Assembly: GCA_963674745.2 (NCBI GenBank)
Contig: CAXXDV010000003.1
Span: forward strand, 544,001 to 608,000
Length of the DNA stretch: 64,000 nucleotides
DNA from: Desulfosudaceae bacterium
Lineage (GTDB): Bacteria; Desulfobacterota; Desulfobacteria; Desulfobacterales; Desulfosudaceae
Reading direction: 5' to 3'
The position numbers were made by a program, and so were the translations under genes. Below, piece after piece: positions 32,395-64,000 of the stretch. The notes beneath the pieces are model-generated. The model was not told the DNA's origin, did no database searches, and saw nothing but the letters and a program-made list of their open reading frames with translations. Every line of letters begins with the position of its first letter. Within the stretch, counting starts at the first letter, position 1.

Positions 32395-32440
32395 TGGGTT
32401 CCTTCCGGGGATGATCCGGAACCAAACCTGAAAGTAGCAT

Positions 32441-34444: not shown

Positions 34445-34473
34445 CGGTTCGAAGTCCTGGGGGAGAAATCTAT

Positions 34474-36636: not shown

Positions 36637-36639
36637 TAT

Positions 36640-36842
36640 AGGTTCAGGGTTCGGCCCTAGGGGCACGGCGTGCCGTGCCATTTTGATATGATTTTGTGGT
36701 TATGTGGTTAGGTGATTAGGTGGACGGGGTGTGAGGCCGGGTGTGGCCCGCTTCGCGGGGGTTTTTGGTATGACCGCGGATGTTGTAGGGGCGGCCCCCT
36801 GTGGCCGCCCGGTGATGGGCACCCACAGGGGGGTGCCCCTAC
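36640..36842. repeat. REP cluster with 7/8-mer arrays
   Basis: TAGGGGCACGGCGTGCCGTGCC; TGTGGTTA TGTGGTTA GGTGATTA; CCCGCTTCGCGGG; inverted pair GTAGGGGCGGCCCCCTGTGGCCGCCC / GGGCACCCAC...GTGCCCCTAC. Confidence 0.85.
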
Positions 36843-36932
36843 ATGTGTTTAGATTTCTGTTCTTATGTCTTCTTAAGATTGTGCTGGTGTGTTTTTGTGC
36901 CCGGCTTTCGCCGGAATGACGAAAAAGGATTG

Positions 36933-39293: not shown

Positions 39294-39309
39294 GGAAAAC
39301 GGATTTTCG

Positions 39310-46029: not shown

Positions 46030-46922
46030 TGGACAAGCTTGATGATTACATCGATCAGTACCTGAATTACCTGCTGATTGAAAAAGGGTTGTCGAAAAAC
46101 ACGATGGCCGCTTACAGCAGCGACCTGTCGGCTTACGCCGATTTTTTAAAAAGCAACCGGATCGATTGCGTTTCCGAAGACGACATGGCGGTTGTCCTCA
46201 AGTACCTTATCGATCTCCGGGGCAGCGGCCTGGGAAAACGGTCCCGGGCGCGGCACCTGGTCACGCTGCGGGGCTTTTACAAATACCTGGTTCAGGAAAG
46301 ATTTCTCAAGCAGAACCCGGTGAATATTGTCGATCTTCCCAAGATCGGCTTCAGGCTGCCGGATGTGTTGACGGTCGAGGAAGTGATCGCGCTGCTGGAC
46401 GCGCCCGATATCACCAATCCCAGGGGAAAACGCGATTCAGCCATGCTGGAGCTGCTTTATGCCGCCGGCTTGCGAGTGTCCGAACTGGTCAATGTGGCGG
46501 TCCAGGATGTGAACACCGAAGTGTCTTTTATCCGGGTGTTCGGAAAAGGGGCCAAGGAGCGGCTGATTCCTACCGGCCGGATGGCGGCCGACAAACTCGA
46601 CGATTACATGAAAACCGCCCGGCCGCTGTTGCTCAAAGACCATGTCAGCCGTTTTCTTTTTGTCGCCTGGCGGGGGCAGCCCATGACCCGGCAGGGGTTC
46701 TGGAAGCTGATTAAAAAATACGCCCGCGCTGCCGGTTTGGATAAACGGGTAACCCCTCACTCCCTGCGCCATTCCTTTGCCAGCCATCTGCTTGAAGGCG
46801 GGGCCGACCTGCGGTCTGTCCAGATGATGCTCGGTCACACGGATATTTCAACCACCCAGATTTACACCCATGTGGCTTACGGCCATTTAAAGGAGGTGCA
46901 TTCCCGATTCCATCCAAGATAG
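46029..46922 (+). CDS. xerD: Site-specific tyrosine recombinase XerD
   Basis: EKGLS.NT, LP..L, GLRVSEL, GKG.KER, TRQGFW, HSLRHSFA.HLL.GGADLR.VQ.MLGH..ISTTQIYTH. Confidence 0.93.
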   Translation: MDKLDDYIDQYLNYLLIEKGLSKNTMAAYSSDLSAYADFLKSNRIDCVSEDDMAVVLKYLIDLRGSGLGKRSRARHLVTLRGFYKYLVQERFLKQNPVNIVDLPKIGFRLPDVLTVEEVIALLDAPDITNPRGKRDSAMLELLYAAGLRVSELVNVAVQDVNTEVSFIRVFGKGAKERLIPTGRMAADKLDDYMKTARPLLLKDHVSRFLFVAWRGQPMTRQGFWKLIKKYARAAGLDKRVTPHSLRHSFASHLLEGGADLRSVQMMLGHTDISTTQIYTHVAYGHLKEVHSRFHPR

Positions 46923-47049
46923 AGCTTGACAATAGACCCAAAAATTTTGAAGATTGACAGATTTAGTAGGAAATAGCCGGGTGGTTTCTTTTTTAACGGC
47001 GGCGCAATCCGCCGGATGTGACGGCCAAATATCGGGGGAGATGGCAGGT

Positions 47050-48711
47050 ATGAATTTTACTTCTGAGAGGCAGTTGTCGCGGGGTTCAAGAATCGGCACA
47101 TGGCGCGACAGCGAAGGGGCATCACCGGAAGAGGGTCAAGAAGCGATAAGATCAGCGCTGTTTTCTGTTTCCAGGCCCGTGTTTCTGGTGGAAAAAGACG
47201 GAGCTGCCGGCGTCGCCACGCAGGGACGGGCGGAATTATCGACGTCAGGACAACCCGGACAGGGATATCCCCTGGTCGGTTACGCGCCGCCTTTGCCGCC
47301 TGAAAATTTCGGGGACCCGTGGTTTAAAAAAATGATCGGCCTGCGTTACCCCTATGTGGGGGGCGCCATGGCCAACGGCATTACCTCGGTTAAAATGGTG
47401 CAGGCCCTGGCCGGGGCGGGCATGGTCGGTTTTTTCGGCGCGGCCGGACTACCGCCGGAAAAGGTGGAAGCGGCCTTAACGGAACTTCAGTCCTCCCTGC
47501 CGGATCTGCCTTTCGGTGTCAATCTTATCCACTCACCGGTTGATGCCTCCCTGGAACAGGCCATTGTTGATTTATACCTGAAAAAACAGGTTCGCCTGAT
47601 CAGCGCTTCGGCTTACATGCGGCTGACACCTTATATTGTTTTATTCCGGGTCAAGGGAATCCATACCGACAGCCAGGGCCGTATCGTGGCGCCCAACCGG
47701 ATTGTGGCCAAGGTCTCCCGGGTTGAAGTGGCGGCCCGGTTTTTTACCCCGCCCCCGGAAAAAATATTAAACGGCCTGGTCCAGCAGGGCCTGATTACAG
47801 ACGAAGAAGCCCGGCTGGCCGAAAACATCCCCATGGCGGACGCCTTGACGGCGGAAGCCGACTCCGGCGGACATACGGACAACCGTCCGGCCCTGTCATT
47901 GCTGCCGACCATGCTGACCCTGCGCGACGAGATATGCGCGCAATACAATTACCCGCAATCCATTCCCGTCGGTCTCGGGGGCGGTATCGCCACGCCCGAA
48001 GCCACTGCCGCCGCCTTTGCCATGGGCGCCGCGTACGTGGTCACCGGCTCGGTCAACCAGGCCTGTGTTGAAGCCGGTGTAACACAGACCGTGCGGAATA
48101 TGCTGGTCTCGGCCGAACAGGCGGATGTGACCATGGCGCCCGCGGCGGACATGTTTGAAATGGGCGGAAAGGTCCAGGTGTTAAAACGCGGTACCATGTT
48201 TGCCATGCGGGCCGCCAAACTTTATGACCTGTATGTCAGGCATAAAAGCTATGACGAGCTGCCGGCCAAAGAAAAAGAGAATATCGAAAAGAATCTTCTG
48301 CGACGCGGGTTTGAAGAAGAGTGGCAGGAGACGCGAAGGTTTTTCGAGATTCGTGATCCCAGGCAGATAGAACGGGCGGAAAAAGACGCCCGGCATAAAA
48401 TGGCCCTGGTTTTCCGTTCTTACCTGGGCCGGTCTTCCATGTGGGGGATTACCGGTGAAGAAGACCGCAAGGTGGATTACCAGATCTGGTGCGGACCGTC
48501 CATGGGCGCGTTTAATGAATGGGCCCGGGGCAGTTTCCTGGAAAAAGCCGAAAATCGTGATGTTACTACCGTGGCCATGAATCTCCTTTTCGGGGCTTCG
48601 GTGGTGTCCCGGTTCGGCTGGATTCAATGCCAGGGCGGGGCTTTACCACCAACAGCAGGCAAGGTGAGGCCCATGCAGTTGGATGAAATCAACAACTGGA
48701 TGGCAAAGTAA
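47050..48711 (+). CDS. pfaD: PfaD-family enoyl reductase (PUFA/polyketide synthase)
   Basis: GAMANGI, VNLIHSP, AKVSR.EVA, EADSGGHTDNRP, MAPAADMFEMG, DYQIWCGP; start 47041 or 47050. Confidence 0.95.
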   Translation: MNFTSERQLSRGSRIGTWRDSEGASPEEGQEAIRSALFSVSRPVFLVEKDGAAGVATQGRAELSTSGQPGQGYPLVGYAPPLPPENFGDPWFKKMIGLRYPYVGGAMANGITSVKMVQALAGAGMVGFFGAAGLPPEKVEAALTELQSSLPDLPFGVNLIHSPVDASLEQAIVDLYLKKQVRLISASAYMRLTPYIVLFRVKGIHTDSQGRIVAPNRIVAKVSRVEVAARFFTPPPEKILNGLVQQGLITDEEARLAENIPMADALTAEADSGGHTDNRPALSLLPTMLTLRDEICAQYNYPQSIPVGLGGGIATPEATAAAFAMGAAYVVTGSVNQACVEAGVTQTVRNMLVSAEQADVTMAPAADMFEMGGKVQVLKRGTMFAMRAAKLYDLYVRHKSYDELPAKEKENIEKNLLRRGFEEEWQETRRFFEIRDPRQIERAEKDARHKMALVFRSYLGRSSMWGITGEEDRKVDYQIWCGPSMGAFNEWARGSFLEKAENRDVTTVAMNLLFGASVVSRFGWIQCQGGALPPTAGKVRPMQLDEINNWMAK

Positions 48712-48821
48712 AAATCCCAACCTCTGCGTTGCGCTTCATCTCTCGGAATTTCACGTACTACATGTACGCTGCATTCCTCGAGATTTGCGACGCCTTGATC
48801 TTGAAATTTTTACTTTGCCAT
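48700..48821. mobile_element. 122-bp MITE-like palindromic element
   Basis: Perfect 16-bp terminal inverted repeats ATGGCAAAGTAAAAAT / ATTTTTACTTTGCCAT; non-coding interior; left end includes the pfaD stop. Confidence 0.75.
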
Positions 48822-48872
48822 TATAATCATTTCAGGCCAATTATTTAAGGTCATGAAAAAAGTTTTGGGAAG

Positions 48873-51800
48873 GTGAGCCAATTGAAGCAGGCGCGAAATA
48901 ACAAGGATCAAAGCATAGCCATCGTGGGAATGGGCAGCCTGTTCCCGAAATCCGCCAATTTAAAAGAATACTGGCGGCTTCTGGCCCGGGGTGAAGACGC
49001 CATTATCGAAGTGCCTTCCTCGCACTGGTCGACGGTTGATTATTACCGTCAGGACACCAGCGGCGGTGATTACACCTATTGCAAGCGGGGCGGTTTTCTT
49101 TCCCCGACATTGTTTGACCCCACGGAATTTAATATTCCGCCCAATATTCTAGAGGCCACCGATACGTCCCAGCTGTTGGGGCTGGTCGTCACCCGCATGG
49201 CCCTCGAAGATGCCGGCTACGGTGAAGGCGGCCGCAACTGGGACCGGGACGCCACCGGCGTGATTGTCGGTGTGACCGGCACCCAGGAACTGTTGATCCC
49301 CTTGAGTTCCCGGCTGGGCTTTCCCATCTGGCGCAAAGCCCTTGAGAATGCCGGTGTCACACAGGAACAGCTTGATCTGGTCATGGAACAGATATCCGAC
49401 GCTTATGTCGGCTGGCAGGAAAGCTCTTTTCCGGGGCTGCTGGGCAATGTGGTGGCCGGCCGGATCGCCAACCGGTTTGATCTGGGCGGAACCAACTGTG
49501 TCGTGGACGCCGCCTGTGCCAGTTCCCTGGCGGCACTTAACCTGGCCGTCCTGGAATTGATTTCCGGCCGGAGCGATATGATGATTGCCGGCGGCATCGA
49601 TACCCTGAATGATATTTTCATGCATATGTGTTTTGTTAAAACAGCGGTTCTCTCTTTTTCCGGTGACGCCAAACCGTTTTCCAAAAGTGCCGACGGTACG
49701 GTGCTGGGCGAGGGGCTGGGCCTGTTTGTGCTCAAGCGGCTGGAAGACGCCGAAAGGGACAAGGACAAAATATATGCCGTTATCAAAGCCATGGGGACTT
49801 CCAGTGACGGCCGGTCGGCGGGCATATACGCCCCGGTGGCCGCAGGACAGGCAAAAGCCATCCGGCGCACCTATGATTACGCCGGTATTTCACCGACCAG
49901 TGTGGAAATGGTAGAGGCCCACGGCACCGGCACCAGGGTCGGCGACGCGGTTGAGTTTGAAGCCCTGGCCGGATGTTTCAAAGAAGCGGGTGTCGAACAG
50001 GGCAGTTGCGCGCTGGGCTCGGTCAAGTCGATGATCGGTCACACCAAGGCGGCCGCGGGCGCCGCCAGTCTGGCCAAGACGGCCCTGTCCTTATACCACA
50101 AGGCCATTCCCCCCACGCTCAAGGTCGACGAACCGGATCCCAAACTGGGACTCGATCAATCGCCGTTTTACATCAGCACCACCCTGAGACCGTGGTTTTC
50201 CAACCGCAAACACCCCCGCCGGGCGGCCATGAGCTCTTTCGGGTTCGGCGGCAGCAATTATCATCTGGTCCTCGAGGAATACGGGGCCGATAAAATAACA
50301 ACGGCCTGGGACAGCACGGTCGAGATCGTCGCTTTTTCCGGGGCTTCAAAAGCCGACGTCGTCCAGAAACTGGGCGACTTAACCGGCGCGGTGACCGAGG
50401 CCGCGTCCGACATCAGCGGATTTTCTACGATCATTGGCCGGCTTGCCGCTGACGCGCGCCAGAGTTTTAACCCCGGGGATAAACATCGCCTACTGGTGAT
50501 TCTTGATCTCATGAAAGACGATGTGCCGGGTGTATTACAAGGCGCGATCGACACAATTAATTCATCCGAACAACCGATCGTGTCCGGCGATAATCTTTTT
50601 TACGGCATATCGGACCATCCGGACGGACCGGTCGGGAAAACCGCTTTTGTATTTCCGGGCCAGGGCAGCCAGTATGTCTATATGGGACGGGACCTGGCGG
50701 TTGTTTTCCCGGAAGCGCACGAAGCCTTTGAAACAGCCAACAAGCAGTTTGATCATTTCCATGATGCCCCTGAAAAACGCCTGTCGGATCATGTTTTTCC
50801 GGCCGGGTATACCGGTGACCGGAAAAAACCGGCTGAAGAAAACCTGCGCAGCACGGACATCGCGCAACCCGCCATCGGCACGGTCAGCCTGGGGATGGCC
50901 CGGGTGCTGACGCGATTCGGCCTGGCTCCCGACATGGCCTGCGGGCACAGTTTCGGCGAGTTGACAGCACTTTGCCAGGCCGGGTGGATGGATGAAGAGA
51001 CGTTTTTATCCCTGGCCGCCGCCCGTGGAAAATACATGGCCGCGGCCGGCAAAGAACCCGGCGCCATGATGGCGGTCAAAGAAGACCTGGCCCGCATTGA
51101 ATCACTGATCACGGAAAACGATCTGGACCTGGTGCTGGCCAACAGAAACAGTTATGACCAGGGGGTTCTGTCGGGCAAAGAAGATGAAATCGAACGCGCC
51201 CTTGGCATCTGCAAACAGCATAAGATCAGGGCCACCCGCCTGCCGGTGTCGGCCGCCTTTCACACCAGACTGGTCCAGGATGCCGCCAAACCATTTCGCG
51301 ACTATCTGCGGAAGAAAGACCTTGCTGCCACGGATATCGCTGTCTATTCCAATACCACGGCCGGTGCTTATCCCAAAGACAGTGCCGAAATAAAGAAGAT
51401 CCTGGGCGGTCAGATCCTGAATCCGGTAAATTTCGTCCAGGAAGTCGAGCAGATGTATGCCGACGGGGCCCGGATTTTCATGGAGATCGGGCCCAAGTCC
51501 GTCCTGACCGGTCTTGTCAAATCGATATTAAAAGGGCGGGAGTTTCATGCCCTGTCGCTGGATGCTTCCGGCGGCCGTAAGAACGGGTTGGTTGATCTGG
51601 CCAAAACCCTGTGCTTTTTTGCTGCTGCCGGTCACCCCGTTAAACTGGAAAACTGGGAAGAGCGCCCCCCGCAGGCTGCCCGGGAGCAGAAAATGCGGGT
51701 GCCCATCTGTGGGGCCAACTACAGAAAAGAACAACCAAAGAAACCCCGACGCATTGCACCGATTGTACAAAAACCGGTCGCCGCGCCGCCGCCGGTCATA

Positions 51801-54800
51801 GAAAAGCCGGTATCCGAGACTGCTGCACCGGCCGTGCCGACAGGTACATTGGACAGTTCGGTTGTCCGCGAGGCGTTAAAAGTGGTGTCCGACAGCTTGA
51901 AGTCCATGCAGACCCTTCAGCAGCAAACCGCCCTGGCTCACCAGAAGTTCCTGGAAACCCAGTCGGAAGCGGGCAGGGCACTCGGCATTGTCATGGAAAA
52001 AACCCGGCATTTCAGCTCGACTGTTGCGCCTGCGGGGGATATGCCTTCAATGCCGGTGACACCGGCCCGGCCGGCGCCTGCCCCGGAACCGGAAAGAATG
52101 CCTGCCGCGCCTGTACCGCCGCCGGCCCGGCAAGTGCCGGCCCCGGTTGCACCGGCAACGCCCGGCATTGACGCCGCTGTTATCGAAAGCGCCATGCTCG
52201 ATATCGTCAGCCAGGTGACGGGTTATCCGGCGGACATGCTCGGTCTTGAAATGGACATCGAGAACGACCTGGGCATTGACTCCATCAAGCGGGTCGAGAT
52301 TTTGTCGGTGTTTGAAGAAGAGCACCCGGACATTCCCCCGGCCACACCCGAAGACCTGGCCGAGATGCGGACGCTGCAGGAAATCTGCGATCATTTGCTG
52401 TCATTGGCCGGCACCGGCGCAGCGGCAGCGCCGACCCCGGCCGCACCGGTTGCCGCCGTCCCGGCGGCAGCAGGCGTATCGGCTGCTGGTATCGAAAGCG
52501 CCATGCTCGATATCGTCAGCCGGGTGACGGGTTATCCGGCGGATATGCTGGGTCTTGAAATGGACATCGAGAACGACCTGGGCATTGACTCCATCAAGCG
52601 GGTCGAGATCCTGTCGGTGTTTGAAGAAGAGCACCCGGATATTCCCTCGGCCACACCCGAAGACCTGGCCGAGATGCGGACGCTGCAGGAAATCTGCGAT
52701 CATTTGCTGTCATTGGCCGGCACCGGCGCAGCGGCAGCGCCGACCCCGGCCGCACCGGTTGCCGCCGCCCCGGCGGCAGCAGGCGTATCGGCTGCTGGTA
52801 TCGAAAGCGCCATGCTCGACATCGTCAGCCGGGTGACGGGTTATCCGGCGGATATGCTGGGTCTTGAAATGGACATCGAGAACGACCTGGGCATTGACTC
52901 CATTAAACGGGTCGAGATCCTGTCGGTGTTTGAAGAAGAGCACCCGGATATTCCCTCGGCCACACCCGAAGACCTGGCCGAGATGCGGACGCTGCAGGAA
53001 ATCTGCGATCATTTGCTGTCCCTGTCCGGTTACGCCGGAGGTTCCGGAGTTGCGGTCGACACGGCCGTTGAACCGGTTACCGAACCTGCTGCGCCGGTCG
53101 AACAGCCGGCAGAACAGGTCCTCCGGCGGCGGATCGTTTTGCGTGAGCAGCCCGCGGGGGATGCCGGATCGCTTACCATGGCTGAAGACCGGATGATATT
53201 CGTAACCGGCAATGACCCGGAAACGGGGCAGGCCATCTGTGATCAATTAATGACATCCGGCATAAAGACCCGGTTTCTGGATAAGATCGACGGGGATGTG
53301 GATTTTTCACAAGCCGGCGGGCTGGTGATTGTTTCCAGGTCAGTGTCTGACGGGGATCTGTTGTGGACGGATGAAGATGAAAATTACGTGAAATCGGTTT
53401 TTGAGCTGACGGCACAGGCCGGTCCGGAATTGATCAACCATGCCGCAAGCGGGGAAGATGTCGTCTTCGCAGCCGTTACCCGGCTGGACGGCGCCATGGG
53501 GTTTGGCCAAAGCGTTGATTTTAATCCCCTGTATGCGGCCATGAGCGGGCTGGTGAAAACCGCCGCCATTGAATGGGATAAGGTCATCTGCCGGGTGGTC
53601 GACGTTGATCCGCAATGGCTGGATGCCGAAGCCGCTGCCGGGGCTGTCGTTACCGAAATCCTGAACAAAGAGGGCGCGCTGGAAGTCGGCCTGTCCGACA
53701 AGGCACGACGGGTCATTGAACTGGCGGAAGCGCCTTGTCCGGAAGGGGATATCCATCTTCAGCAGGGGGATGTCATTGTTGTTTCCGGCGGTGCCAGAGG
53801 GGTGACGGCCGAATGCGTCAAAACCCTGGCCGGTCAGACCCCGGCCGCCATCGCGCTGCTGGGCAGATCGCCGTCTCCGGTGGAAGAGCCCGAATGGCTG
53901 AAGCCCGTGACCGGGGAAGCAGAAGTCAAAAAGACAATCATGGCCAATGAATTTGCCGGTCAAAAGGTGTCTCCCATGGAACTGGAGGCTTCCTACAAGA
54001 AACACATGGCCAATCGTGAAATTCTTGAAACCCTGCGCCATATCCGTGACCTGGGCAGGGATGTCGTTTATTATCCGGTGGACATTCGAGACCGGGACGC
54101 CGTAAAAGCGGTTTTTGATACCATCGGACAAAACCAGGGCACCATCCGCTGCCTTGTTCACGGCGCGGGGGTGCTGGAGGACCGGTTTATCGTTGAAAAA
54201 ACACGCCGGCAGTTCGACCGGGTTTTTGATACCAAGGTAAAGGGTGTCAGGACGCTGCTTTCCGTCATCGATCCCGGCCTGTTGCGTTATGTCGTCCTGT
54301 TCTCTTCCGTCACTGCCCGTATGGGCAACAAGGGGCAGGTGGATTACGCCATGGCCAACGAGGTGTTGAACAAGACCGCGCATAAGCTCTCTTTGAGCCT
54401 GACGGACTGCAGGGCCGTTGCTATTAACTGGGGGCCCTGGGACGGCGGTATGGTGACGGCTTCCCTGAAACGGGAATTTGAAAAGAACGGCATTTCCCTG
54501 ATTCCGCTGGCGGCCGGTGCCAGTTGCCTGCTGGCCGAAATGAGCAGTCAGGATAAAGCCGACAGTGAGATCGTCATCGGAGCCGGTTTTTCAGACCTGG
54601 CCGCTGATGCCGGGGAACCGGCTGCTAAAGCGGCCGGGGTCGATCAGCAGCCCGTGACACCGGTAAAAGGCAACGGCCTGTCCATGGCGTTCGAGCGCGA
54701 GGTCAGCCTGGCGTCGTTTCCGGTATTAAAAGCGCATATGTTAAATGGTAAGGCGGTGGTGCCTTTTGCCCTGGCGGCGGAGTGGGTCGGCAGCGGCGCG

Positions 54801-55517
54801 CTTCACGCCAATCCGGGACTGCTGCTGACCGGCATCGACGATATGCGGGTGCTGTCCGGTATCACCTTGAACGGCGGCTCTGAATATATTGAGGTCCAGG
54901 CCGGAAAACCCAAAAAGAACGGTTCCGTATTCGAGGTCGATGTGCAGATCATCACCGGCCCGGATGCCGCGGACAAGCGGCTTCGATATACCGCCCGGGC
55001 GGTCTTGAGCGCCGATTATGAAACACCGCCGCCATTCACCGAACCGGCTTCACTGGCTTCGGGTAGTTATGAAAGATCAACGGCCGATGTATATGAACAG
55101 ATTCTTTTCCATGGCCCGGAACTGGCCGGTATTCGTGACATTTACGCCTGCAGCAAAGAGGGGATAAAGGCGGCCGTTGCCTGCGCGCCAATGCCGCGTC
55201 AATGGATCGCGCAGCCTTTACGGAATACCTGGCTGATCGACCCGATGATTCTGGACGCCGCTTTTCAACTGGCCATTGTCTGGTGTTATGAAAATGCCGG
55301 GGCGGTGTCCCTGCCGGTTTCTTTTAAACAGTTCCGCCAGTATCGTAAGGCCTTCCCGGCTGAAGGTGTCGTGACTGTGCTGGAAGTAAAGCAGCAGACC
55401 GACCGCAAAATGCGCGGTGATTTTACGTTCCTGGATGACGGCGGCGCCGTGGTGGCCCGGATGATTGATTACCAGGCTGTGATGGACAAGGCCCTGAAAA
55501 AGGCGTTTAAAGGTTAA
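48873..55517 (+). CDS. pfaA: PfaA-like iterative type I PKS: KS-MAT-ACPx3-KR-DH
   Basis: KS DAACASS, EAHGTGT, GHTKAAAG; AT GHSFGE, AFH; three DLGIDSIKRVEI ACPs; KR SGGARGVT, YAMAN; DH HMLNGKAVVP...DPMILD. Confidence 0.95.
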   Translation: MSQLKQARNNKDQSIAIVGMGSLFPKSANLKEYWRLLARGEDAIIEVPSSHWSTVDYYRQDTSGGDYTYCKRGGFLSPTLFDPTEFNIPPNILEATDTSQLLGLVVTRMALEDAGYGEGGRNWDRDATGVIVGVTGTQELLIPLSSRLGFPIWRKALENAGVTQEQLDLVMEQISDAYVGWQESSFPGLLGNVVAGRIANRFDLGGTNCVVDAACASSLAALNLAVLELISGRSDMMIAGGIDTLNDIFMHMCFVKTAVLSFSGDAKPFSKSADGTVLGEGLGLFVLKRLEDAERDKDKIYAVIKAMGTSSDGRSAGIYAPVAAGQAKAIRRTYDYAGISPTSVEMVEAHGTGTRVGDAVEFEALAGCFKEAGVEQGSCALGSVKSMIGHTKAAAGAASLAKTALSLYHKAIPPTLKVDEPDPKLGLDQSPFYISTTLRPWFSNRKHPRRAAMSSFGFGGSNYHLVLEEYGADKITTAWDSTVEIVAFSGASKADVVQKLGDLTGAVTEAASDISGFSTIIGRLAADARQSFNPGDKHRLLVILDLMKDDVPGVLQGAIDTINSSEQPIVSGDNLFYGISDHPDGPVGKTAFVFPGQGSQYVYMGRDLAVVFPEAHEAFETANKQFDHFHDAPEKRLSDHVFPAGYTGDRKKPAEENLRSTDIAQPAIGTVSLGMARVLTRFGLAPDMACGHSFGELTALCQAGWMDEETFLSLAAARGKYMAAAGKEPGAMMAVKEDLARIESLITENDLDLVLANRNSYDQGVLSGKEDEIERALGICKQHKIRATRLPVSAAFHTRLVQDAAKPFRDYLRKKDLAATDIAVYSNTTAGAYPKDSAEIKKILGGQILNPVNFVQEVEQMYADGARIFMEIGPKSVLTGLVKSILKGREFHALSLDASGGRKNGLVDLAKTLCFFAAAGHPVKLENWEERPPQAAREQKMRVPICGANYRKEQPKKPRRIAPIVQKPVAAPPPVIEKPVSETAAPAVPTGTLDSSVVREALKVVSDSLKSMQTLQQQTALAHQKFLETQSEAGRALGIVMEKTRHFSSTVAPAGDMPSMPVTPARPAPAPEPERMPAAPVPPPARQVPAPVAPATPGIDAAVIESAMLDIVSQVTGYPADMLGLEMDIENDLGIDSIKRVEILSVFEEEHPDIPPATPEDLAEMRTLQEICDHLLSLAGTGAAAAPTPAAPVAAVPAAAGVSAAGIESAMLDIVSRVTGYPADMLGLEMDIENDLGIDSIKRVEILSVFEEEHPDIPSATPEDLAEMRTLQEICDHLLSLAGTGAAAAPTPAAPVAAAPAAAGVSAAGIESAMLDIVSRVTGYPADMLGLEMDIENDLGIDSIKRVEILSVFEEEHPDIPSATPEDLAEMRTLQEICDHLLSLSGYAGGSGVAVDTAVEPVTEPAAPVEQPAEQVLRRRIVLREQPAGDAGSLTMAEDRMIFVTGNDPETGQAICDQLMTSGIKTRFLDKIDGDVDFSQAGGLVIVSRSVSDGDLLWTDEDENYVKSVFELTAQAGPELINHAASGEDVVFAAVTRLDGAMGFGQSVDFNPLYAAMSGLVKTAAIEWDKVICRVVDVDPQWLDAEAAAGAVVTEILNKEGALEVGLSDKARRVIELAEAPCPEGDIHLQQGDVIVVSGGARGVTAECVKTLAGQTPAAIALLGRSPSPVEEPEWLKPVTGEAEVKKTIMANEFAGQKVSPMELEASYKKHMANREILETLRHIRDLGRDVVYYPVDIRDRDAVKAVFDTIGQNQGTIRCLVHGAGVLEDRFIVEKTRRQFDRVFDTKVKGVRTLLSVIDPGLLRYVVLFSSVTARMGNKGQVDYAMANEVLNKTAHKLSLSLTDCRAVAINWGPWDGGMVTASLKREFEKNGISLIPLAAGASCLLAEMSSQDKADSEIVIGAGFSDLAADAGEPAAKAAGVDQQPVTPVKGNGLSMAFEREVSLASFPVLKAHMLNGKAVVPFALAAEWVGSGALHANPGLLLTGIDDMRVLSGITLNGGSEYIEVQAGKPKKNGSVFEVDVQIITGPDAADKRLRYTARAVLSADYETPPPFTEPASLASGSYERSTADVYEQILFHGPELAGIRDIYACSKEGIKAAVACAPMPRQWIAQPLRNTWLIDPMILDAAFQLAIVWCYENAGAVSLPVSFKQFRQYRKAFPAEGVVTVLEVKQQTDRKMRGDFTFLDDGGAVVARMIDYQAVMDKALKKAFKG
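52181..53020 (+). repeat. Near-identical 309-bp tandem repeats encoding the three ACP domains
   Basis: Units begin at 52181, 52490 and 52799. Confidence 0.95.
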
Positions 55518-55792: not shown

Positions 55793-56321
55793 ATGCCATA
55801 CAACCCCGATACACACCACCGCCATTCCATTCGTTTGCGGAAATATGATTATTCTCGGGCCGGAGCGTATTTCGTTACCATTTGCACATATAACAAAGAA
55901 TGTCTGTTTGGCAATATTACAGACGGCAAAGTCCGGTTAAACGATGCCGGACGCGTGGTTGGTGGTGAATGGATCAAGACGGCAGAAATACGTAATGAAA
56001 TCCGTTGATTTGGATGAATGGGTGATAATGCCCAATCATTTTCACGGCATTTTGATCATCACCGGTATGGGCGCGGCGCGCCGTGCCCATACAATTGAAC
56101 GGTTTGGAAAACCGGTACCCGGTTCGATACCAACGATCATCCGGTCATTCAAATCCGCCGTTACAAAACAAATAAACGAATTACATCACACGCCCGGCGC
56201 ACCATTATGGCAGAGGAATTATTGGGAACATATTATCCGTAACGAATCCGAATTAAATGAAATCCGGCAATACATCAACAACAATCCGGCGCAATGGGAA
56301 TTAGGACCATCTTTATCATGA
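55793..56321 (+). pseudogene. REP-associated tyrosine transposase (RAYT/TnpA-REP, HUH Y1), frameshifted near 55995-56008
   Basis: ATG 55793 (RBS GGAGG) SIRLRKYDYSRAGAYFVTICT in one frame; VIMPNHFHGI (HUH), FKS, LWQRNYWEHIIR, QYINNNP (catalytic Tyr) in the next frame. Confidence 0.92.
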
Positions 56322-57532: not shown

Positions 57533-58934
57533 ATGCAAACCTCAGCCGCCGGAGAAGTTCAGCCCTACCGCACACTGAGCCGCCGGGAATTTTTGCGCCT
57601 GTCGGCACTGGCCTCGGCCGGTGTGATCGCCGGGTGTGCCGTCAATCCCGTAACCGGTGAAAAACAATTCATGCTGGTCTCCGAAGACTGGGAGGTTCAA
57701 GTTGACCGGGAAAACTCGCCGCACCAGTTTTCAGCGGATTACGGGGCGACGCAGGATCAGGCGCTGAACCATTATGTCAACCAGGTCGGTACCGCCATGG
57801 CCGCCCGGACGCACCGTCCGCACATGCCTTATTCCTTTCGTTGCGTCAACGCCAATTATATCAATGCCTATGCTTTTCCCGGCGGCAGTATCGCCGCCAC
57901 GCGGGGGATTATGCTGACACTGGAAAGCGAGGCCGAACTGGCCGCGCTGATGGGTCATGAACTCGGTCATGTCAATGCCCGGCACACTGCCCGGCAGATG
58001 TCCAAATCCATGCTGACCCAGGCCCTTGTAGCCGGTGTCAGCGCCTATGCCGCATCCAGAGACGAGCTTTACGGCGACATCGCCGCAACCATCGGTATGA
58101 TCGGTGCCGGCGCGCTGCTGGCCAGCTACAGCCGTGACAACGAGCGTGAAGCCGATCACCTGGGCATGACCTACATGACCCAAAGCGGTTACGGCACGGG
58201 GGGGATGGTTGAACTCATGGACATGTTAAACTCGCTTCATCATGGCAGTTCTGACGCGGTCTCTCTTCTTTTTGCCACTCACCCCATGAGCCAGGAACGG
58301 TATGACACGGCTGTCAGCCAGGCGCAAAGCGAATTTTCTCAGGCCCGGTCAAATCCCGCTCTATCGAGAGCGCTACATGGATAATACCGCTTCTTTAAGG
58401 AGAATAAAAACAGCCGTCGAGCAGTTCCAAAAGGGGGAAGCCTATATCGCCAAAAAAGATTACAATGCCGCTGAATCGGCGATTTTAAAAGGACTGAAAG
58501 TCGTGCCCCAGGATTATGCCGGCCTGGTGATCATGGCCAAATGCAAAATGGCCCAGGGCCAGCACGATCAGGCCCTGCTCTTTTCTGAAAAAGCCAGGCG
58601 GGTGTATCCCCAGGAGGCCCAGGCAAATTATATCAGCGGTTTTTCCAGCCTTCAGCTGAACCGGCTGAACGCGGCCGTGGCCAATTTCAGCGCCTACGAT
58701 AAAAAACTCCCCGGCAACCCCAACACGGTTTTCTTCCGGGGCTATGCCTATGAGAAAATGGGCAGAAAACAGCAGGCGGCCACGGATTACACCGCTTATC
58801 TCAACCAGGTGAATGCCGGCGATCAGGCCCGGCATGCCTACGATAAATTGGTCAAATGGGGGGTATATAAAACCGGCCAACCAGGCCCAGTGACCGCGTC
58901 CGGGCGGACCGTTTCCGGATCCGATTGGGTGTAG
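57533..58934 (+). pseudogene. M48 (BepA/YfgC-like) zinc metalloprotease lipoprotein with TPRs, one-base frameshift near 58351-58357
   Basis: Tat-like SRREFL plus lipobox IAGC; NAYAFPGG, HELGH, YSRDNEREAD, THP. Deleting one base joins the downstream TPR ORF (PLYRERYMDN...). May be a sequencing error. Confidence 0.85.
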
Positions 58935-59480
58935 GGGCGACCGGCCGGTCGCCCTTAAACATGGGTGCCACGGACACAGGGCGACCCGCCGGTCGCCCCT
59001 ACGTGCTGTCGCAATTTGACCAATCACGGGCAAGCTGACGCTTCGCCCGTGGCACCCATTAAAGAAAATACATAAACCTCATGAACCTATAATCACCTGA
59101 AGCCACAGGGCGACCCGCCGGTCGCCCCTACAGAGTTCGTGCCGGGCGTCCATATACATTCCCGTGTGTCCATGAATGATGCCGATGGCGTTCATGGTTG
59201 TTGTAGGGGCAGGCCCCCGTGCCTGCCCGGGGATAGGGCGATCCGCCGGTCGCCCCTACGGAATCGCCTCAAACGTGAACCGAGCCCGAACAACATAAAC
59301 ATGGCAAAAGGGCACGGCACGCCGTGCCCCTACAGCATTCGCGAACGCCCATCTGGCCACTTAATCCCCTCACCACAGAACACCCTAAAACTCTAAAACC
59401 CTAAAACTTTAACACCTTAAAATCCTGAAACATCCCCGAAGCAGGGCCATCCCGAATCCCGAACCTCAAATCTTGAACCG
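58931..59480. repeat. REP cluster with C-rich 8-mer and 7-mer arrays at its right edge
   Basis: Six REP hairpins; CCCTAAAA CTCTAAAA CCCTAAAA; CCCGAAT CCCGAAC CTCAAAT CTTGAAC. Confidence 0.88.
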
Positions 59481-59492
59481 GTGATAGTCCCC

Positions 59493-59534
59493 TTGACATG
59501 TTCTTTGAACGGTGTTAAATTAACATTGTTCAAA
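59493..59534 (+). promoter_or_regulatory. Sigma70 promoter overlapped by a palindromic TetR-type operator
   Basis: TTGACA-17-TAAATT with extended -10 TG; inverted repeat TTTGAACGGTGTTAA-A-TTAACATTGTTCAAA (59504-59534). Confidence 0.75.
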
Positions 59535-59548
59535 TGACAGGAGGGCCA

Positions 59549-60196
59549 ATGCCGAAAGCACCCCGCACACAGGACGAAGTTCAGGAAATCCGAAACCGGA
59601 TTCTGGACGAGGCCATTTATCTGATTACGGAAAAAGGCTTCAACAACCTGAGCATGCGGTCTATTGCCTCACGGGTGAATATGACCGCAGCCAATATTTA
59701 TAATTACTATAAAAACAAGGATGAGCTGTATCTGGACATTCAGACCCGGGGTTTTGAGCAGCTTTACGACTATCTGCAACAGGCCCTGGACGACAACCCC
59801 GACCCTCATGCCGGCATCCCGGCCGTGATGCGGGCCTACCTTGACTTTGGCATTTCGTTTCCCAGCCTGTATGAGATCATGTTTATACTCAACACCCCCA
59901 AGTACGCCGATTATCAGAACACCAGCCTGGAACCGGATGCCTATGTTGAGAAGGAGACGGCCATGAAAGCGGCGCGCCTGCTGGTGGAAGCGATAACCGG
60001 CATTCCACCCGAAGTGTCCCGGGTTGAAACCGGGGAGGCTTTTGCCCTTATGACCCAGGTCTGGACCGCCCTGCACGGTATTGTCAGCCTTTACAACAGC
60101 CGGGTGCTTCAGGAAGTGGAAGCGGATACCGAAGCCTTTATCAATCGCTGCATCAACACATACAGCCGGTTTTTTGTCCTTGATACCGGTGTTTAA
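59549..60196 (+). CDS. TetR/AcrR-family regulator (WHG-like C-domain)
   Basis: HTH RILDEA...GF..LSMR.IA...AANIYNYYKNKDEL; WTALHG; RBS AGGAGG. Confidence 0.93.
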   Translation: MPKAPRTQDEVQEIRNRILDEAIYLITEKGFNNLSMRSIASRVNMTAANIYNYYKNKDELYLDIQTRGFEQLYDYLQQALDDNPDPHAGIPAVMRAYLDFGISFPSLYEIMFILNTPKYADYQNTSLEPDAYVEKETAMKAARLLVEAITGIPPEVSRVETGEAFALMTQVWTALHGIVSLYNSRVLQEVEADTEAFINRCINTYSRFFVLDTGV

Positions 60197-60209
60197 AAGG
60201 AGTTGCCAT

Positions 60210-63170
60210 ATGAACGGTCTGGTTTTCTGGTTGTTTCGAACAATGGCCCTGATGTTCAATCATCGCCCGAAGTTGAATCAATGCCTGCGGCACAGGGACG
60301 GGTATTTTGAATTTACCCTGGGCTTTAAAACCGAAACCGGTTCCGTTGACCGGGCCCTTCGGGTGGCTGACGGCCGCATGACGCCCTTGAAAAAGACGCC
60401 GGACAAAGCCGACCTGGTCCTGTATTTTAAAGATAACCGGACCCTGCTGGAAATGCTGACCACCACGCCCAACCAGATCCTGATCCTGATTCTGAACAAC
60501 AAGATGACCCTGTCGGGCAATCTTTCCTGCCTGCAGTTGTTTAATTATTATGTGTCGCTGCTGGCGGGGCCGCTGCATCGGTGGATGCTGCGCCGGCAGC
60601 AGAAGAAAGACCGGGCCGACCGGACCCGAACCTGGGGGAGAAAAAACAGCCAAAGCGAAAAAGCGGATCTGCCTTACCGGCGGCAGCAGCCCCTGCGGGT
60701 TGACAACCCGTCCATCGAAGCCGGGGTCGGTTTTTTAACGGAGCCGTATCTTTCCGATTACACGCTTTCGGATTTCCCCCGGCTGGAGCGGATGCTCGAG
60801 CGGCACTTCACGGCAAAACCGCAGGTCTGTATCGAACGCCCGCGCCTGCTGACCCGATGGTTCCGGGAAAACGGTTTCGAGACCGATGCCGACGGGCAGC
60901 CCTGGACGCCGGAATTGCGGCAGGCCCATGCCTTCAAATATCTGATGTGTGAAAAAAAGCCGGTTATCGCCGGGGACGCCCTGCTGGCGGGATCGACCAC
61001 CGCGGCCCAGCCCACCGGCGTTGTCATTTATCCTGATGCCCATGGCGGCCTGCTCTGGGGTGAGTTGGCTTCCGTCGGCGACCGGCCGCTCAACCCTTAC
61101 CATATCAGCCAAGAAGATGCCCGGGAACTGCATCATGATATCTTTCCGTTCTGGATCAATCGCAATTTCAAGGAGTATGTCCGCCAGAAATACGATTATC
61201 CCTTGAGCATGAAGATTGAAGAGCGCTGGGTTTATTATTTTGTCTGGAAGTCCATCGCGGTATCCCATACCATCCCTGATTACCCCGCCATCCTGAGCCG
61301 GGGCACATCCGGCCTGATCGATGATATTGAAACACATCTGGCCGATGCTTCCGACGATAAAGACCGCTGCCATACGCTGACGGCCATGAAGCTGTGCCTG
61401 GAAGGGATGACGGCCTATGCCGAACACTGTGCCGAAGAAGCGGAACGGCAGGCACAACAGGCGGCGGGTCAGGTCCGCAAGCAGGAGTTGCTTGGCATGG
61501 CCGAAGCCTGCCGCAGGGTTCCCCGTTATCCGGCGCGAAACCTGCAGGAAGCCGTCCAGTGCGTCTGGCTGGTCTGGGTCGGGCTGCACATGGAAAACAC
61601 CAACACCGGTCTTTCACTGGGGCGCCTAGACCAGTGGCTGCAGCCGTTTTTTGGCCGGGACATGGAGCAGTTGACCACGGCCGACGAACGGCAGGCGTAT
61701 GTCAGGCATGCCCTGGAACTGGTCGGCGACCTGATGATGCGGGCCACCGATCATCTGCCGCTGGTACCGGACATCGGCAACTACCTGTTCGGCGGCAGTT
61801 CTTCAGACCAGGCCATCACCCTGGGCGGCATCACCCCGGACGGTGCCGACGGGGTCAATGACATGACCTATATTTTCTTAAAAGTCACCGAGATGCTGGC
61901 CATCCGTGATCCCAACATGAACGCCCGCTTCTGTCCGGACGTCAACAGCGATACCTACTTGAGCCGGTTGTGCGAGGTCAATTACGTGACCGCCGCCACG
62001 CCTTCCATGCACAATGACCGGGCCGTGCTGGCCGCGCTTTCACAGAACGGTTACGCGCCCGAACATGCCCGGGACTGGTCGGCCACCGGCTGCGTGGAGC
62101 CGACCTTGTCCGGAAGGCACATGGGGCATACCGGTTCCATCCTCATGAACATGGTGTCGGCCCTGGAACTGGCCTTGAACAACGGCCGTCATCCCCACCT
62201 TGATCAGCAACTGGGGCCGGCCACCGGGGCGGTCGATGATTTTGCCCGGTTTGAGGATTTCTTTGCGGCCTACCAGGCCCAGCAGCGGTTTCTGATTGAG
62301 CAGGCGGTCTCTTTGAACAACATGCTGGCCGAGGCCCATGCCTTTATCCGGCCCACGCCTTTGCTCAGCGCCCTCATGGACGGCTGCCTGGAAGCCGGTC
62401 GCGACGTTACCCGGGGCGGGGCCCGTTACAACACTTCGGGCACGTCCAACATCGGCCTGACCGACGTGGTGGACTCTTTGCTGGTTATCAAAAAAATGGT
62501 TTTTGACGACAGGGTTGTCGGCTTTCAGGAACTGAAAAAAGCCATTGATACCGATTTTAAGGCGGCCCCGGATTTACACCAACGGATCCGGCGGCAGGTG
62601 TCGATGTTCGGGTCCGGACACCATGATGCCGTGGACATGGCCCGGCAGGTGACCGCTTTCGTTCACGATGCCTATCACAACCAGACGAATTTCCGCGGGG
62701 GGCACTATACCGCCGGTTTCTGGTCCATGTCCCAGCATGTGGCTTACGGCAACCTGTCCGGCACGCTGCCGTCGGGTCGTATCCGGGGCAAGGCCTTTAC
62801 CCCCGGGCTGACGCCGCATCCGGAAGCCTCGCCGAGTTTTCTGGATAATATCCGGGACGTGGCCGCCCTGGATCCGAAAACCATGGACAACAACATCGCC
62901 TTTAACGTCAAGCTGGTACCTGATGCAAAAGAATCCCGCCGGGAAATTGTTGATACCATGCGGGCTTATGTCGGCGCCTATTTCAATATGGGCGGCATGC
63001 AGATGCAGTTTAACGTGGTCAATTCCGACACTCTCAAAGCCGCCATGGCCGACCCCGACAGTTACCGCAATCTGCTGGTCAGGATTTCCGGGTACAATGC
63101 CTATTTTGTGACGCTTAACCGGGAGATGCAGATCGAGCTCATCGAGCGGGCCGAGTACGGGCTCTCATAA
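60210..63170 (+). CDS. Glycyl radical enzyme (PFL2/eliminase-like) with N-terminal SCP2-like domain
   Basis: GRLDQ, GCVEP Cys loop, QFNVV, LLVRISGY radical Gly. First ~120 aa resemble SCP2 (ADLVLYF...KMTLSGNL). ATG 60210 with RBS AAGGAG. Confidence 0.92.
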   Translation: MNGLVFWLFRTMALMFNHRPKLNQCLRHRDGYFEFTLGFKTETGSVDRALRVADGRMTPLKKTPDKADLVLYFKDNRTLLEMLTTTPNQILILILNNKMTLSGNLSCLQLFNYYVSLLAGPLHRWMLRRQQKKDRADRTRTWGRKNSQSEKADLPYRRQQPLRVDNPSIEAGVGFLTEPYLSDYTLSDFPRLERMLERHFTAKPQVCIERPRLLTRWFRENGFETDADGQPWTPELRQAHAFKYLMCEKKPVIAGDALLAGSTTAAQPTGVVIYPDAHGGLLWGELASVGDRPLNPYHISQEDARELHHDIFPFWINRNFKEYVRQKYDYPLSMKIEERWVYYFVWKSIAVSHTIPDYPAILSRGTSGLIDDIETHLADASDDKDRCHTLTAMKLCLEGMTAYAEHCAEEAERQAQQAAGQVRKQELLGMAEACRRVPRYPARNLQEAVQCVWLVWVGLHMENTNTGLSLGRLDQWLQPFFGRDMEQLTTADERQAYVRHALELVGDLMMRATDHLPLVPDIGNYLFGGSSSDQAITLGGITPDGADGVNDMTYIFLKVTEMLAIRDPNMNARFCPDVNSDTYLSRLCEVNYVTAATPSMHNDRAVLAALSQNGYAPEHARDWSATGCVEPTLSGRHMGHTGSILMNMVSALELALNNGRHPHLDQQLGPATGAVDDFARFEDFFAAYQAQQRFLIEQAVSLNNMLAEAHAFIRPTPLLSALMDGCLEAGRDVTRGGARYNTSGTSNIGLTDVVDSLLVIKKMVFDDRVVGFQELKKAIDTDFKAAPDLHQRIRRQVSMFGSGHHDAVDMARQVTAFVHDAYHNQTNFRGGHYTAGFWSMSQHVAYGNLSGTLPSGRIRGKAFTPGLTPHPEASPSFLDNIRDVAALDPKTMDNNIAFNVKLVPDAKESRREIVDTMRAYVGAYFNMGGMQMQFNVVNSDTLKAAMADPDSYRNLLVRISGYNAYFVTLNREMQIELIERAEYGLS

Positions 63171-63505
63171 TAGGTTTGAGGTTCGAGGTTCGGGGTTCCA
63201 GGGGCAGGGGATTTGGGGGCCGCGGGACGTTCGCTGATGCTGTAGGGGCGACCGGCGGGTCGCCCATTTGTCGTTTTCAGGTGGTTTCCCTTATTACCCA
63301 CGGCCCGTAGGGGCAACCCCCTGTGGTTGACCTTCATCAGGGCAGGCACGGGGGCCTGCCCCTACATTATTCATGAACATTCGCCACGGCCCGTTGGGGC
63401 GACCGCCGGTCGCCCCTACATAATCACCTCAAACCTCAACCACATAACCATGACAAAAGGGCACGGCACGCCGTGCCCCTACGCCATTTGCGAACGCCCC
63501 CCCGA
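63171..63505. repeat. REP cluster with G-rich 7-mers at the left edge and C-rich arrays near the right edge
   Basis: GGTTTGA GGTTCGA GGTTCGG GGTTCCA; five REP hairpins; TAATCACC TCAAACC TCAACCA CATAACCA. Confidence 0.88.
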
Positions 63506-63507
63506 AC

Positions 63508-64000
63508 CTATCCGGAAAAGGTTTCCTTCATCATCAGTGTGCAAACCAGGGCGCACAGGGCGGACAGGAACAATATCAGCAGCAGCAGGGTATACCCTTC
63601 CGTCGCGTAGGCGCCGGCACGGGCGGCGGGAAAGTGGTCAAGCACGCGACCCATCAGGGGCATGTAAACCGCGCCGCCCAGAAAGGGGAACAGGTTGACC
63701 GCGCCCACCGAGGTGCCGGCGATGGATACCGGAAACAGTTCTTTGGTCGTTGTAAACCCCACAATAACAATGGCCGAGGCAAAAACCGAGAGGGTGAAAA
63801 AAAGGACGTACAATGCCGGCCGGGGCAGGCCGTCGGGGTTCAAATACAGGAACAGGAGTTCCCCTGAAAGAAGTACGGCGCAGATAATAAACGGTTTTTT
63901 CCGGCTTTTGAGCAGGCGGTCGGAAACCAGCCCCATCAGCGGGCTGCCGATAATCATTCCCCACGCAATCATGCTTAAGATGGCACCGGCTTCAGTGCGG
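63508..64000 (-). CDS. MFS transporter, 5' partial
   Basis: GLVSDRLLKSRK motif A, ELFP..IAGTSVG.VN, multiple TMs; frame stays open to the window end. Confidence 0.88.
   Translation of the reverse strand, partial: RTEAGAILSMIAWGMIIGSPLMGLVSDRLLKSRKKPFIICAVLLSGELLFLYLNPDGLPRPALYVLFFTLSVFASAIVIVGFTTTKELFPVSIAGTSVGAVNLFPFLGGAVYMPLMGRVLDHFPAARAGAYATEGYTLLLLILFLSALCALVCTLMMKETFSG

Follow-up and report, generated by a model that had tools for sequence, protein, structure and literature searches.

We analysed a 64,000-nt stretch of a Desulfosudaceae genome (contig CAXXDV010000003.1 of assembly GCA_963674745.2, positions 544,001 to 608,000; hereafter "the window"), in which the gene at 60210..63170 encodes a glycyl radical enzyme (GRE) whose N terminus is predicted to form an SCP2-like domain, directly downstream of a gene for a TetR-family regulator. 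The GRE gene carries an AAGGAG 7 nt 5' of the ATG at 60210. The longest open frame (60081..63170) opens at a TTG that falls within the TetR gene; because related proteins start at ATG, we took ATG 60210 as the conserved start. Translation and Pfam matches bear out the first-pass annotation of this DNA, which had placed here a 986-aa GRE with GCVEP and RISGY motifs. The parts of the gene are as follows.

60210..63170 (+): SCP2-fused GRE, 986 aa, ATG start, stop at 63170
60210..60569 (+): SCP2-like N-terminal domain, residues about 1-120, from Pfam matches of orthologs and the predicted fold
60570..60779 (+): long helix (H105-142 in the model) and basic linker, residues 121-190
60780..62750 (+): PFL-like barrel core, residues 191-847 (PF02901, E 1e-162)
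61266..61268 (+): codon of His353, at the position of the catalytic His in C-O-cleaving GRE dehydratases
62088..62102 (+): Cys loop GCVEP, residues 627-631, with C628 as predicted thiyl-radical site and E630 of the CXE motif
62799..63110 (+): glycyl radical domain, residues 864-967 (PF01228, E 1.3e-20)
63081-63095 (+): RISGY, residues 958-962, with G961 as predicted radical Gly

The SCP2-GRE architecture is widespread and fixed. A word-index search, in which 8000 candidates were scored, returned at least 875 relatives of the window GRE; the best 120 of the 875 are 872-1030 aa long, 55-100% identical to the query and cover 88-100% of it. Among GTDB species representatives, at least 582 stretches encode relatives (of at least 600 matching two family patterns), and the carriers belong to Desulfobacterota, Spirochaetota, Actinomycetota, Chloroflexota, Bacillota and Planctomycetota. 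We kept 79 genome loci for comparison, drawn from Desulfobacterales, Syntrophales (including Smithella), Spirochaetota, Anoxymicrobiaceae, Chloroflexota, Bacillota, Phycisphaerae and SAR324; cultured carriers among them include three Desulfoluna species, D. spongiiphila, D. butyratoxydans and D. limicola. The closest relatives among the matches listed are from Desulfosudaceae metagenome-assembled genomes (75-76% identity). An 838-aa GRE-like gene with its own activase lies beside the SCP2-GRE at two Chloroflexota loci, L075 (4685..7201, -) and L079 (5912..8428, +). These genes were considered as an SCP2-less form and rejected, since a regular-expression search finds neither GCVE nor R[IV][SA]GY in them, and each is taken to be a different GRE.

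The extension ahead of the GRE core comprises about 190 aa: the SCP2-like domain, a helix and a basic linker. The first-pass annotation had described an SCP2-like extension of about 120 aa; the likeness stands as a predicted fold, while the extension is longer than proposed and its SCP2 part is confined to about residues 1-120. We aligned 70 N-domain slices, namely 69 cut by DNA coordinates from the 79 loci and the window's own. PF02036 (SCP2) was matched by 53 of these at E<=1 (best 2.9e-6), and every other family by at most two. When residues 1-130 were compared by phmmer (E<=1e-3) with 1.84 billion representative proteins, only 88 matches were returned. A Pfam scan covered 68 of them, the remaining 20, mostly short fragments, being omitted; PF02036 was found at E<=1 in 26 of the 68, with three exceeding the 21.3-bit gathering score, and a PFL-like sequence was present in 17, marking those as GREs or GRE fragments. 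By these searches the domain with the predicted SCP2 fold appears almost exclusive to the SCP2-GRE clade. Three short matched proteins (P0137, P0145 and P0148) join the N-domain to something else, namely COX3, PilN, and CoA_binding_3 with Bac_transf; these are probably chimeric or frameshifted metagenome predictions, with alternative fusions as the other possibility.

An SCP2 fold for the N-terminal domain is well supported by prediction. The AlphaFold2 model built from the N-domain alignment has helices at 2-18 and 20-26, five strands, and helices at 76-84, 87-95 and from 105 onward, and so presents the five-stranded sheet with N- and C-terminal helices of SCP2 proteins. Foldseek comparison of this model with the PDB yielded 35 matches at E<=1e-3, the listed ones being without exception SCP2 or SCP2-like. 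The best were the UbiJ-SCP2 entries 6h6o, 6h6p and 6h6n (E 5e-6 to 4e-5; template-modelling (TM) scores 0.58-0.71; identity 17-18%); the others listed include the alkylsulfatases Pisa1 and SdsA1, AF1534, the yeast, human and mosquito SCP2 proteins, and the SCP2L domain of MFE-2. The full-length AlphaFold2 model, from a 120-sequence alignment, reached pLDDT 91.0 and pTM 0.93. Its residues 1-80 score 93-97, against 72 when the domain is modelled alone, and because confidence is higher within the whole chain, the models hint that the domain packs on the GRE core. A helix spans 105-142 in the full-length model, and pLDDT drops to 66-87 across 141-180. The linker (121-190) of the window GRE has 14 Lys and Arg against 9 Asp and Glu; in 120 family members the linker has a median length of 62 aa and a median net charge of +6, with a net charge of at least +3 in 87.5%. 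ESM Atlas scores of 0.91-0.92 to clusters in which SCP2 occurs in only 14% and 30% of members serve as a lead only.

The core was placed among the GREs by its NCBIfam scores and by comparison with the PDB. The solved relatives that match best in sequence are CutC, AfPFL2, the propanediol (PD) and glycerol (GD) dehydratases and HypD (E 1e-107 to 1e-99), with MASS (MasD; 2.3e-65), BSS (5.4e-46) and PFL (1e-22) more distant; these alignments begin at residue about 185-197 of the window GRE or later. Foldseek comparison of the full-length model gave target-normalised TM scores of 0.91-0.94 to GD, PD, HypD, CutC and AfPFL2 at 26-29% identity. About 800 of the 986 residues align with solved GREs, and the N-domain is covered by none of them. 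The core is predicted, rather than solved, as a ten-stranded barrel carrying the catalytic Cys. Against NCBIfam the window GRE scored, with each model's cut-off after the stroke, 400/1100 for HypD, 380.7/1050 for CutC, 387/1000 for HpsG, 355.2/1000 for HpfG, 360.1/1109 for the PflD type, 265.6/1100 for indoleacetate decarboxylase (IAD), 203.3/1150 for HPAD, 114.5/994 for PFL, and 494.3/678.2 for the PFL2-3 subfamily TIGR01774. By these scores the enzyme is outside all characterised GRE equivalog families, because no NCBIfam model reaches its cut-off. The first-pass annotation had envisaged an uncharacterised lipid transformation. The equivalog result (best HypD, 400 against 1100) speaks for an enzyme outside the characterised groups, and against this must be set the generic eliminase residues that it keeps (C628, E630, H353 and F527). 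It had also known of no characterised GRE with an SCP2 domain. Consistent with this, no paper on a GRE-SCP2 fusion was found in searches that were aimed at it or at lipid substrates and left subscription journals and supplements outside, and a term search for "scp" in the 2026 GRE review returned 0 occurrences (PMC13450708). The parts of that review setting out seven GRE classes give a lipid-binding domain to none of them (PMC13450708).

The radical and active-site residues are strongly conserved. G627, C628, V629, E630, P631, G961, S352, H637 and T641 are invariant in 120 family members, H353 and F527 are each kept in 119, H640 and Q534 each in 118, and S531 and S532 are nearly invariant. The RVxG[FWY]-type C-terminal Gly motif of the GRE superfamily is present both as domain (PF01228) and as motif (RISGY, G961 in 120/120). 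Formate lyases are described as carrying two adjacent catalytic Cys on the Cys loop (PMC13450708). The GCVEP loop of the window GRE has one Cys with Gly directly before it (G627-C628), and since residue 627 is Gly in 120/120, the adjacent pair is absent family-wide; the view of a single-Cys, CXE-type GRE, distinct from PFL with its Cys-Cys, is upheld. C628, V629 and E630 form the CXE motif, which Imrich et al. 2026 report as kept by all C-O, C-N and C-S eliminases and by isomerases, and whose Glu hydrogen-bonds the substrate hydroxyl (PMC13450708).

Position 353 bears on which bond is broken. In the printed alignments H353 pairs with the His at chain residue 180 of HypD, within "pgHT", and with an Asp in CutC, and alignment start coordinates (for GD, query 30 = chain 161) would make it the equivalent of GD residue 164 and PD residue 166. 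H353 thus appears to provide the His of the C-O subclass (GD His164 / HypD His160 position); for GD, His164 has been proposed as the residue that protonates the hydroxyl as it leaves (PMC13450708). In the C-S-cleaving lyases IslA, IseG and HpsG, the sulfonate is anchored by two Arg and a Gln, which in IslA are Arg189, Gln193 and Arg678 (PMC13450708). Gln193 would lie opposite H353 and Arg189 opposite I349, positions extrapolated one residue before the alignment (query 34 = chain 194), and the third sulfonate-binding residue, Arg678, fell outside the alignment with the window GRE. F527 lies opposite a Phe of CutC, taken as Phe389 on the assumption of D. alaskensis numbering, and a Phe at this position is named as typical of eliminases in the HypD paper (PMC7077986). 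A His at position 353, in place of Asp or Gln, favours a leaving group in need of protonation and hence C-O cleavage, in which water or an alkoxide departs, and the residue comparison points to C-O-cleaving eliminase chemistry for the SCP2-GREs. As the other predicted substrate-side positions are polar, the substrate probably reacts through a polar hydroxylated head group rather than through a sterol ring or a bare acyl or alkyl chain.

Two correlated active-site variants divide the family at roughly 92:25: T466, S530, D533 and "GSIL" in one, and A, A, T and "NCMM" in the other. The window GRE is of the major type. Tandem SCP2-GRE paralogs occur at three loci (L006, 6994..12958; L014, 1865..7978; L036, 7608..13551), and at L006 and L014 one copy has "HTGSIL" with "NTG" and the other "HTNCMM" with "NAG". 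The occurrence of both variants in tandem suggests two specificities.

The GRE gene begins 13 nt after the stop codon of the TetR gene, and the elements that surround the pair are these.

59493..59521 (+): promoter-like site, TTGACA-17 nt-TAAATT with TG before the second hexamer, 10/12 matches
59499..59539 (no strand; arms 59499-59518 and 59520-59539): inverted repeat, candidate TetR operator, 20-nt arms 1 nt apart, 80% complementary
59534..60196 (+): TetR-family regulator, 220 aa (TetR_N E 1.8e-12, TetR_C_33 E 2.8e-12)
63246..63265 (+): terminator-like G+C-rich hairpin, 76 nt past the GRE stop, 8 pairs of which 7 are G-C, weak T tail

By Pfam, the regulator has the N-terminal helix-turn-helix and C-terminal ligand domain of TetR repressors. 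It reached no NCBIfam equivalog cut-off, and its search against PDB sequences, in which the regulator 7w2o was the best match (E 1.8e-11), yielded no informative ligand. The promoter-like site is the sole one on the + strand in 58900..64000; the scan found three such sites in the region against 2.3 expected and is weak alone. The inverted repeat overlaps this site and contains the core GTTAAATTAAC at 59514. Written as GTTAAnTTAAC, this core recurs in 18 of 29 TetR upstream regions, across phyla, and is unique within the window; it has 19 matches in the 170-nt stretches upstream of TetR genes against seven elsewhere in 1,164,503 nt of loci, and several of those seven lie no more than a few hundred nt from a TetR or GRE start. 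The repeat is, on these sequence counts, a probable TetR operator to which the regulator would bind. With 12 terminator-like sites in the region where 6.7 would be expected, the hairpin behind the GRE gene is suggestive only. In 28 of the 79 loci, as in the window, a TetR gene of the same cluster (c1; TetR_N and TetR_C_33) immediately precedes the GRE gene on its strand; together with the recurring operator core, this shows that the link to TetR proposed from the window alone is real and conserved for this clade.

Neighbouring open reading frames (ORFs) of at least 80 aa, of which the longest non-overlapping were kept (shorter ones being missed), were clustered by BLASTP. Only two clusters recur widely, TetR c1 and the radical-SAM cluster c2. 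The c2 proteins (about 305 aa) match TIGR02494, the PFLE_PFLC-type activase, at 287.5 bits against a cut-off of 174, and are adjacent to the GRE in 26 of the 79 loci. No conserved small-subunit genes were found beside the GRE in the 79 loci at this ORF size, in agreement with the first-pass annotation, which had seen none nearby; nor would there be room for one in the many relatives whose activase directly adjoins the GRE stop. Other neighbours are sporadic, in nine loci or fewer each: AMP-ligases, HDAC-like proteins, CoA-transferase-GNAT proteins, MBL-fold proteins, PNPOx-like proteins, ABC exporters and an alpha/beta hydrolase. The exporters, which are MsbA/SmdAB-like (cluster c5), lie beside the GRE in eight loci, of Desulfoluna and a few others; in Desulfoluna/Desulfolunaceae two of their genes follow the GRE at L049, L060 and L065, and one lies about 3 kb downstream at L068. 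At L028, from Desulfosudis oleivorans, the gene after the GRE is that of the hydrolase. Exporters and hydrolase hint, weakly, at a hydrophobic substrate or product. Targeting to a microcompartment was considered and rejected, as a shell-protein family was seen in 0 of 59 scanned neighbour proteins.

The explanation we consider best, and to which we give about an even chance, is that TetR and GRE form an autoregulated two-gene operon whose GRE, of the CXE 1,2-eliminase/isomerase type and with its SCP2 domain, performs C-O elimination on an amphiphilic substrate. SCP2-like domains of alkylsulfatases, MFE-2 and UbiJ bind alkyl chains, acyl-CoAs or isoprenoid quinones. Because SCP2 domains have that role in these proteins, a hydrophobic or amphiphilic substrate may be expected here too, and by this analogy a lipid-tailed one is a reasonable inference. 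A radical-SAM activase would install the radical on G961, from where it would move to C628. The C628 thiyl radical would then abstract hydrogen from the hydroxyl-bearing carbon, E630 would deprotonate the substrate hydroxyl, and H353 would protonate the beta leaving group, so that the C-O bond is cleaved and water or an alkoxide departs. The polar hydroxylated head of the substrate would sit in the barrel, with the SCP2 domain, apparently fixed in place on the core in the full-length model, holding the hydrophobic tail or passing it on. TetR would occupy the promoter palindrome until released by the substrate or a related hydrophobic molecule; we infer a hydrophobic effector as inducer.

Several findings weigh against this explanation. 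The HMM and structure prediction that had been proposed as a check on residues 1-125 gave a divided answer: at E<=10 no Pfam family matched either these residues or residues 1-197 of the window GRE, which thus fails the gathering score of PF02036, while AlphaFold2 and Foldseek predict the SCP2 fold. The isolated-domain model behind that prediction is only moderate (pLDDT 72.3, pTM 0.62), and the 70-sequence profile of the domain has SCP2 entries as its top three matches among PDB sequences at E of about 0.25, which is not significant alone. Stricter counts lower the synteny: of the 60 loci whose upstream sequence is long enough, only 25 have TetR c1 no more than 1.5 kb upstream, and of the 54 that include both flanks, only 15 have the activase next to the GRE (15 loci were dropped because ORF picking gave no + strand GRE of at least 900 aa). 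The window encodes no activase, the best tblastn match being at E 0.27 and Radical_SAM being absent from the 37 scanned ORFs of at least 150 aa; GRE activity in this organism would thus depend on an activase encoded elsewhere in the genome. An adjacent activase is likewise missing from about half of the related loci. No neighbours beyond TetR and the activase are conserved in the 79 loci, and so no pathway can be named, nor one that would speak for lipid metabolism. Further, the precedent of SCP2 domains in other enzymes is the only ground for a lipid substrate, and no ligand or substrate emerged from the analysis. Polar residues make up the predicted substrate side, comprising S530-S532, D533 and Q534 (the SSSDQ loop), H637, H640 and T641, and these residues would equally fit a small soluble substrate.

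To our knowledge, all characterised GREs act on small soluble molecules or hydrocarbons. A small soluble substrate, as in every characterised GRE eliminase, is the alternative that we take most seriously, although we still think it unlikely. The SCP2-like domain would then have a structural or regulatory role, in covering a hydrophobic patch, gating the channel, oligomerisation or activase docking, like the small subunits of BSS, MASS and HPAD. Near-invariance of the polar residues S531, S532, Q534, H637, H640 and T641 fits such a substrate, and the pLDDT of 93-97 for the domain in the whole chain suggests tight packing and not a free carrier; GRE small subunits are indeed described as covering hydrophobic patches and gating the channel (PMC13450708). 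Yet all of the listed structural matches are to a lipid-binding SCP2 fold or to an alkyl-chain-recruiting alkylsulfatase domain, the solved eliminases of soluble substrates have no such domain in their approximately 800 aligned columns, and the TetR gene and nearby exporters fit hydrophobic effectors, if weakly.

We regard three further alternatives as less likely than a soluble substrate. Fumarate addition by an X-succinate synthase that lacks small subunits and receives an alkane or alkene from the SCP2 domain would fit the closeness of AfPFL2, which has been suggested to be such an enzyme, and also carriers such as Smithella, Desulfatibacillum and Desulfosudis oleivorans, which are known from hydrocarbon settings. 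We find it very improbable: MasD (2.3e-65) and BSS (5.4e-46) are far from the window GRE compared with the eliminases (about 1e-100), at 21-23% against 26-29% identity, the CXE Glu and dehydratase His that serve hydroxylated substrates are kept, and the related loci have no conserved small-subunit or downstream succinate-pathway genes. A decarboxylase or other non-eliminase GRE that releases a hydrocarbon from a hydrophobic (fatty or aryl-alkyl) acid seems to us more doubtful still. An SCP2 domain would suit a long-chain acid, and the NCBIfam models for indoleacetate decarboxylase and the HPAD large subunit do match (265.6 and 203.3 bits, respectively), but these scores fall below those for the eliminases (355-400 bits) and far under their cut-offs of 1100-1150; in addition the small subunit is absent and His353 is the dehydratase state. 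We give equally little credence to a UbiJ/UbiT-like N-domain that holds an isoprenoid quinone or polyprenyl intermediate for modification by the GRE. UbiJ-SCP2 structures (6h6o, 6h6p, 6h6n) are the best structural matches, but at 17-18% identity, with other SCP2 proteins scoring nearly as well, and quinone-biosynthesis genes were seen in 0 of the 59 scanned neighbour proteins.

A more specific form of the amphiphilic C-O eliminase, which we put forward as speculative and improbable as it stands, is that the SCP2-GREs would be the first GREs to act on membrane-type lipids, cleaving C-O at a beta-hydroxy ether or vicinal-diol head. Candidate substrates would be 1-O-alkylglycerols, archaeol-type glycerol ethers, monoacylglycerols, long-chain 1,2-diols and 2-alkoxyethanol surfactants; fatty alcohol or water would be released, an aldehyde or ketone would be left, and the active-site subtypes of the tandem paralogs would mark two head-group specificities. 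If true, this would provide an oxygen-free route of ether-lipid turnover in sediments and digesters. More generally, if the SCP2 domain presents a lipid, the family would transform lipids anaerobically in a way not recognised before, with a bearing on how lipids and biomarkers are turned over in anoxic sediments and digesters. GRE eliminases are themselves known; what is new here is an enzyme of eliminase type with a new domain fusion, whose substrate is probably amphiphilic, in a large and phylogenetically broad clade of fixed architecture. The system is easily tested, being self-contained (TetR, GRE and activase), with a candidate operator for ligand screening and cultured carriers.

The rest of the window holds genes of other kinds. 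A PUFA-synthase-like pair lies at 46954..55517 (+), 4.7 kb upstream of the GRE operon, and consists of a PfaD-like enoyl reductase (NMO and FabD helical insert, 585 aa) followed by a 2214-aa polyketide synthase with KS, AT, three PP-binding stretches, KR and PS-DH. This Pfa-like synthase, 5-13 kb upstream of the GRE, was considered as its partner and is judged coincidental, as it is absent from the recurring clusters of the 79 loci. At 57533..58934 (+), two ORFs overlap with a frame offset of 1, one for a BepA-like M48 peptidase (283 aa, matching 62-259 of the 483 positions in the BepA model) and one with TPR (210 aa); this arrangement suggests a single BepA-type gene that a frameshift has split, or else an error in sequencing. 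Beyond the terminator-like hairpin, a convergent, Pfam-supported MFS gene runs from 63508 to the window end (- strand). A surface-polysaccharide cluster of about 39 kb (1080..40008, +) contains many GT2/GT4 genes, two sulfotransferases, methyltransferases and two Wzy-type ligases, as well as Wzz/tyrosine-kinase-like, Poly_export, CpsB, WecG and MBOAT genes; its G+C content is 0.37-0.50, against 0.52-0.61 in the last 25 kb. Mobile elements have left traces in a DDE transposase (DUF4372 and DDE_Tnp_1; 3..932, -) that runs off the window start, a tyrosine recombinase (Phage_integrase; 46029..46922, +) and an IS200-like Y1 transposase fragment (55944..56321, +).

Among known systems, the X-succinate synthases (BSS 4pkc, MASS 9o8u) offer a precedent for GREs on hydrophobic substrates, with a hydrophobic channel gated by an accessory protein. 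They are 21-23% identical to the window GRE and need beta and gamma small subunits; the window family keeps the CXE Glu and the catalytic His of the eliminases. AfPFL2 of Archaeoglobus fulgidus (2f3o) is among the closest solved relatives (E 3.2e-106, 28% identity, TM 0.94); it too carries GCVE, with an SH motif where the window GRE has S352-H353. It differs in being archaeal, 776 aa long and without the N-terminal domain, its residue 5 lying opposite window residue 191; its function is debated between GD and MASS in the review's treatment of it (PMC13450708).

The SCP2-like fusions SdsA1 and Pisa1 (2cfz, 2yhe) and MFE-2 SCP2L (1ikt), together with UbiJ-SCP2 (6h6o), match the predicted fold at E 5e-6 to 5e-4. 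Unlike in SdsA1, Pisa1 and MFE-2, the domain of the window GRE is N-terminal rather than C-terminal and joined to another catalytic scaffold, and identity is 11-20%. Compared with GD (1r8w), PD (5i2a/9rco) and HypD (6vxc), the window GRE is only 27-29% identical, has an extra 190 aa of SCP2 domain and linker, carries the family-specific invariants of the SSSDQ loop, H637, H640 and T641, and belongs to a TetR operon without nearby microcompartment or aldehyde-processing genes. With these same enzymes it shares the predicted ten-stranded barrel (TM 0.91-0.94), the C-terminal glycyl motif and the Cys-X-Glu loop, as well as the His at the GD His164 / HypD His160 position and the Phe at that of GD Phe333 / CutC Phe389, and its relatives have a PFLE_PFLC-type activase, as do the C-O-cleaving GRE eliminases.

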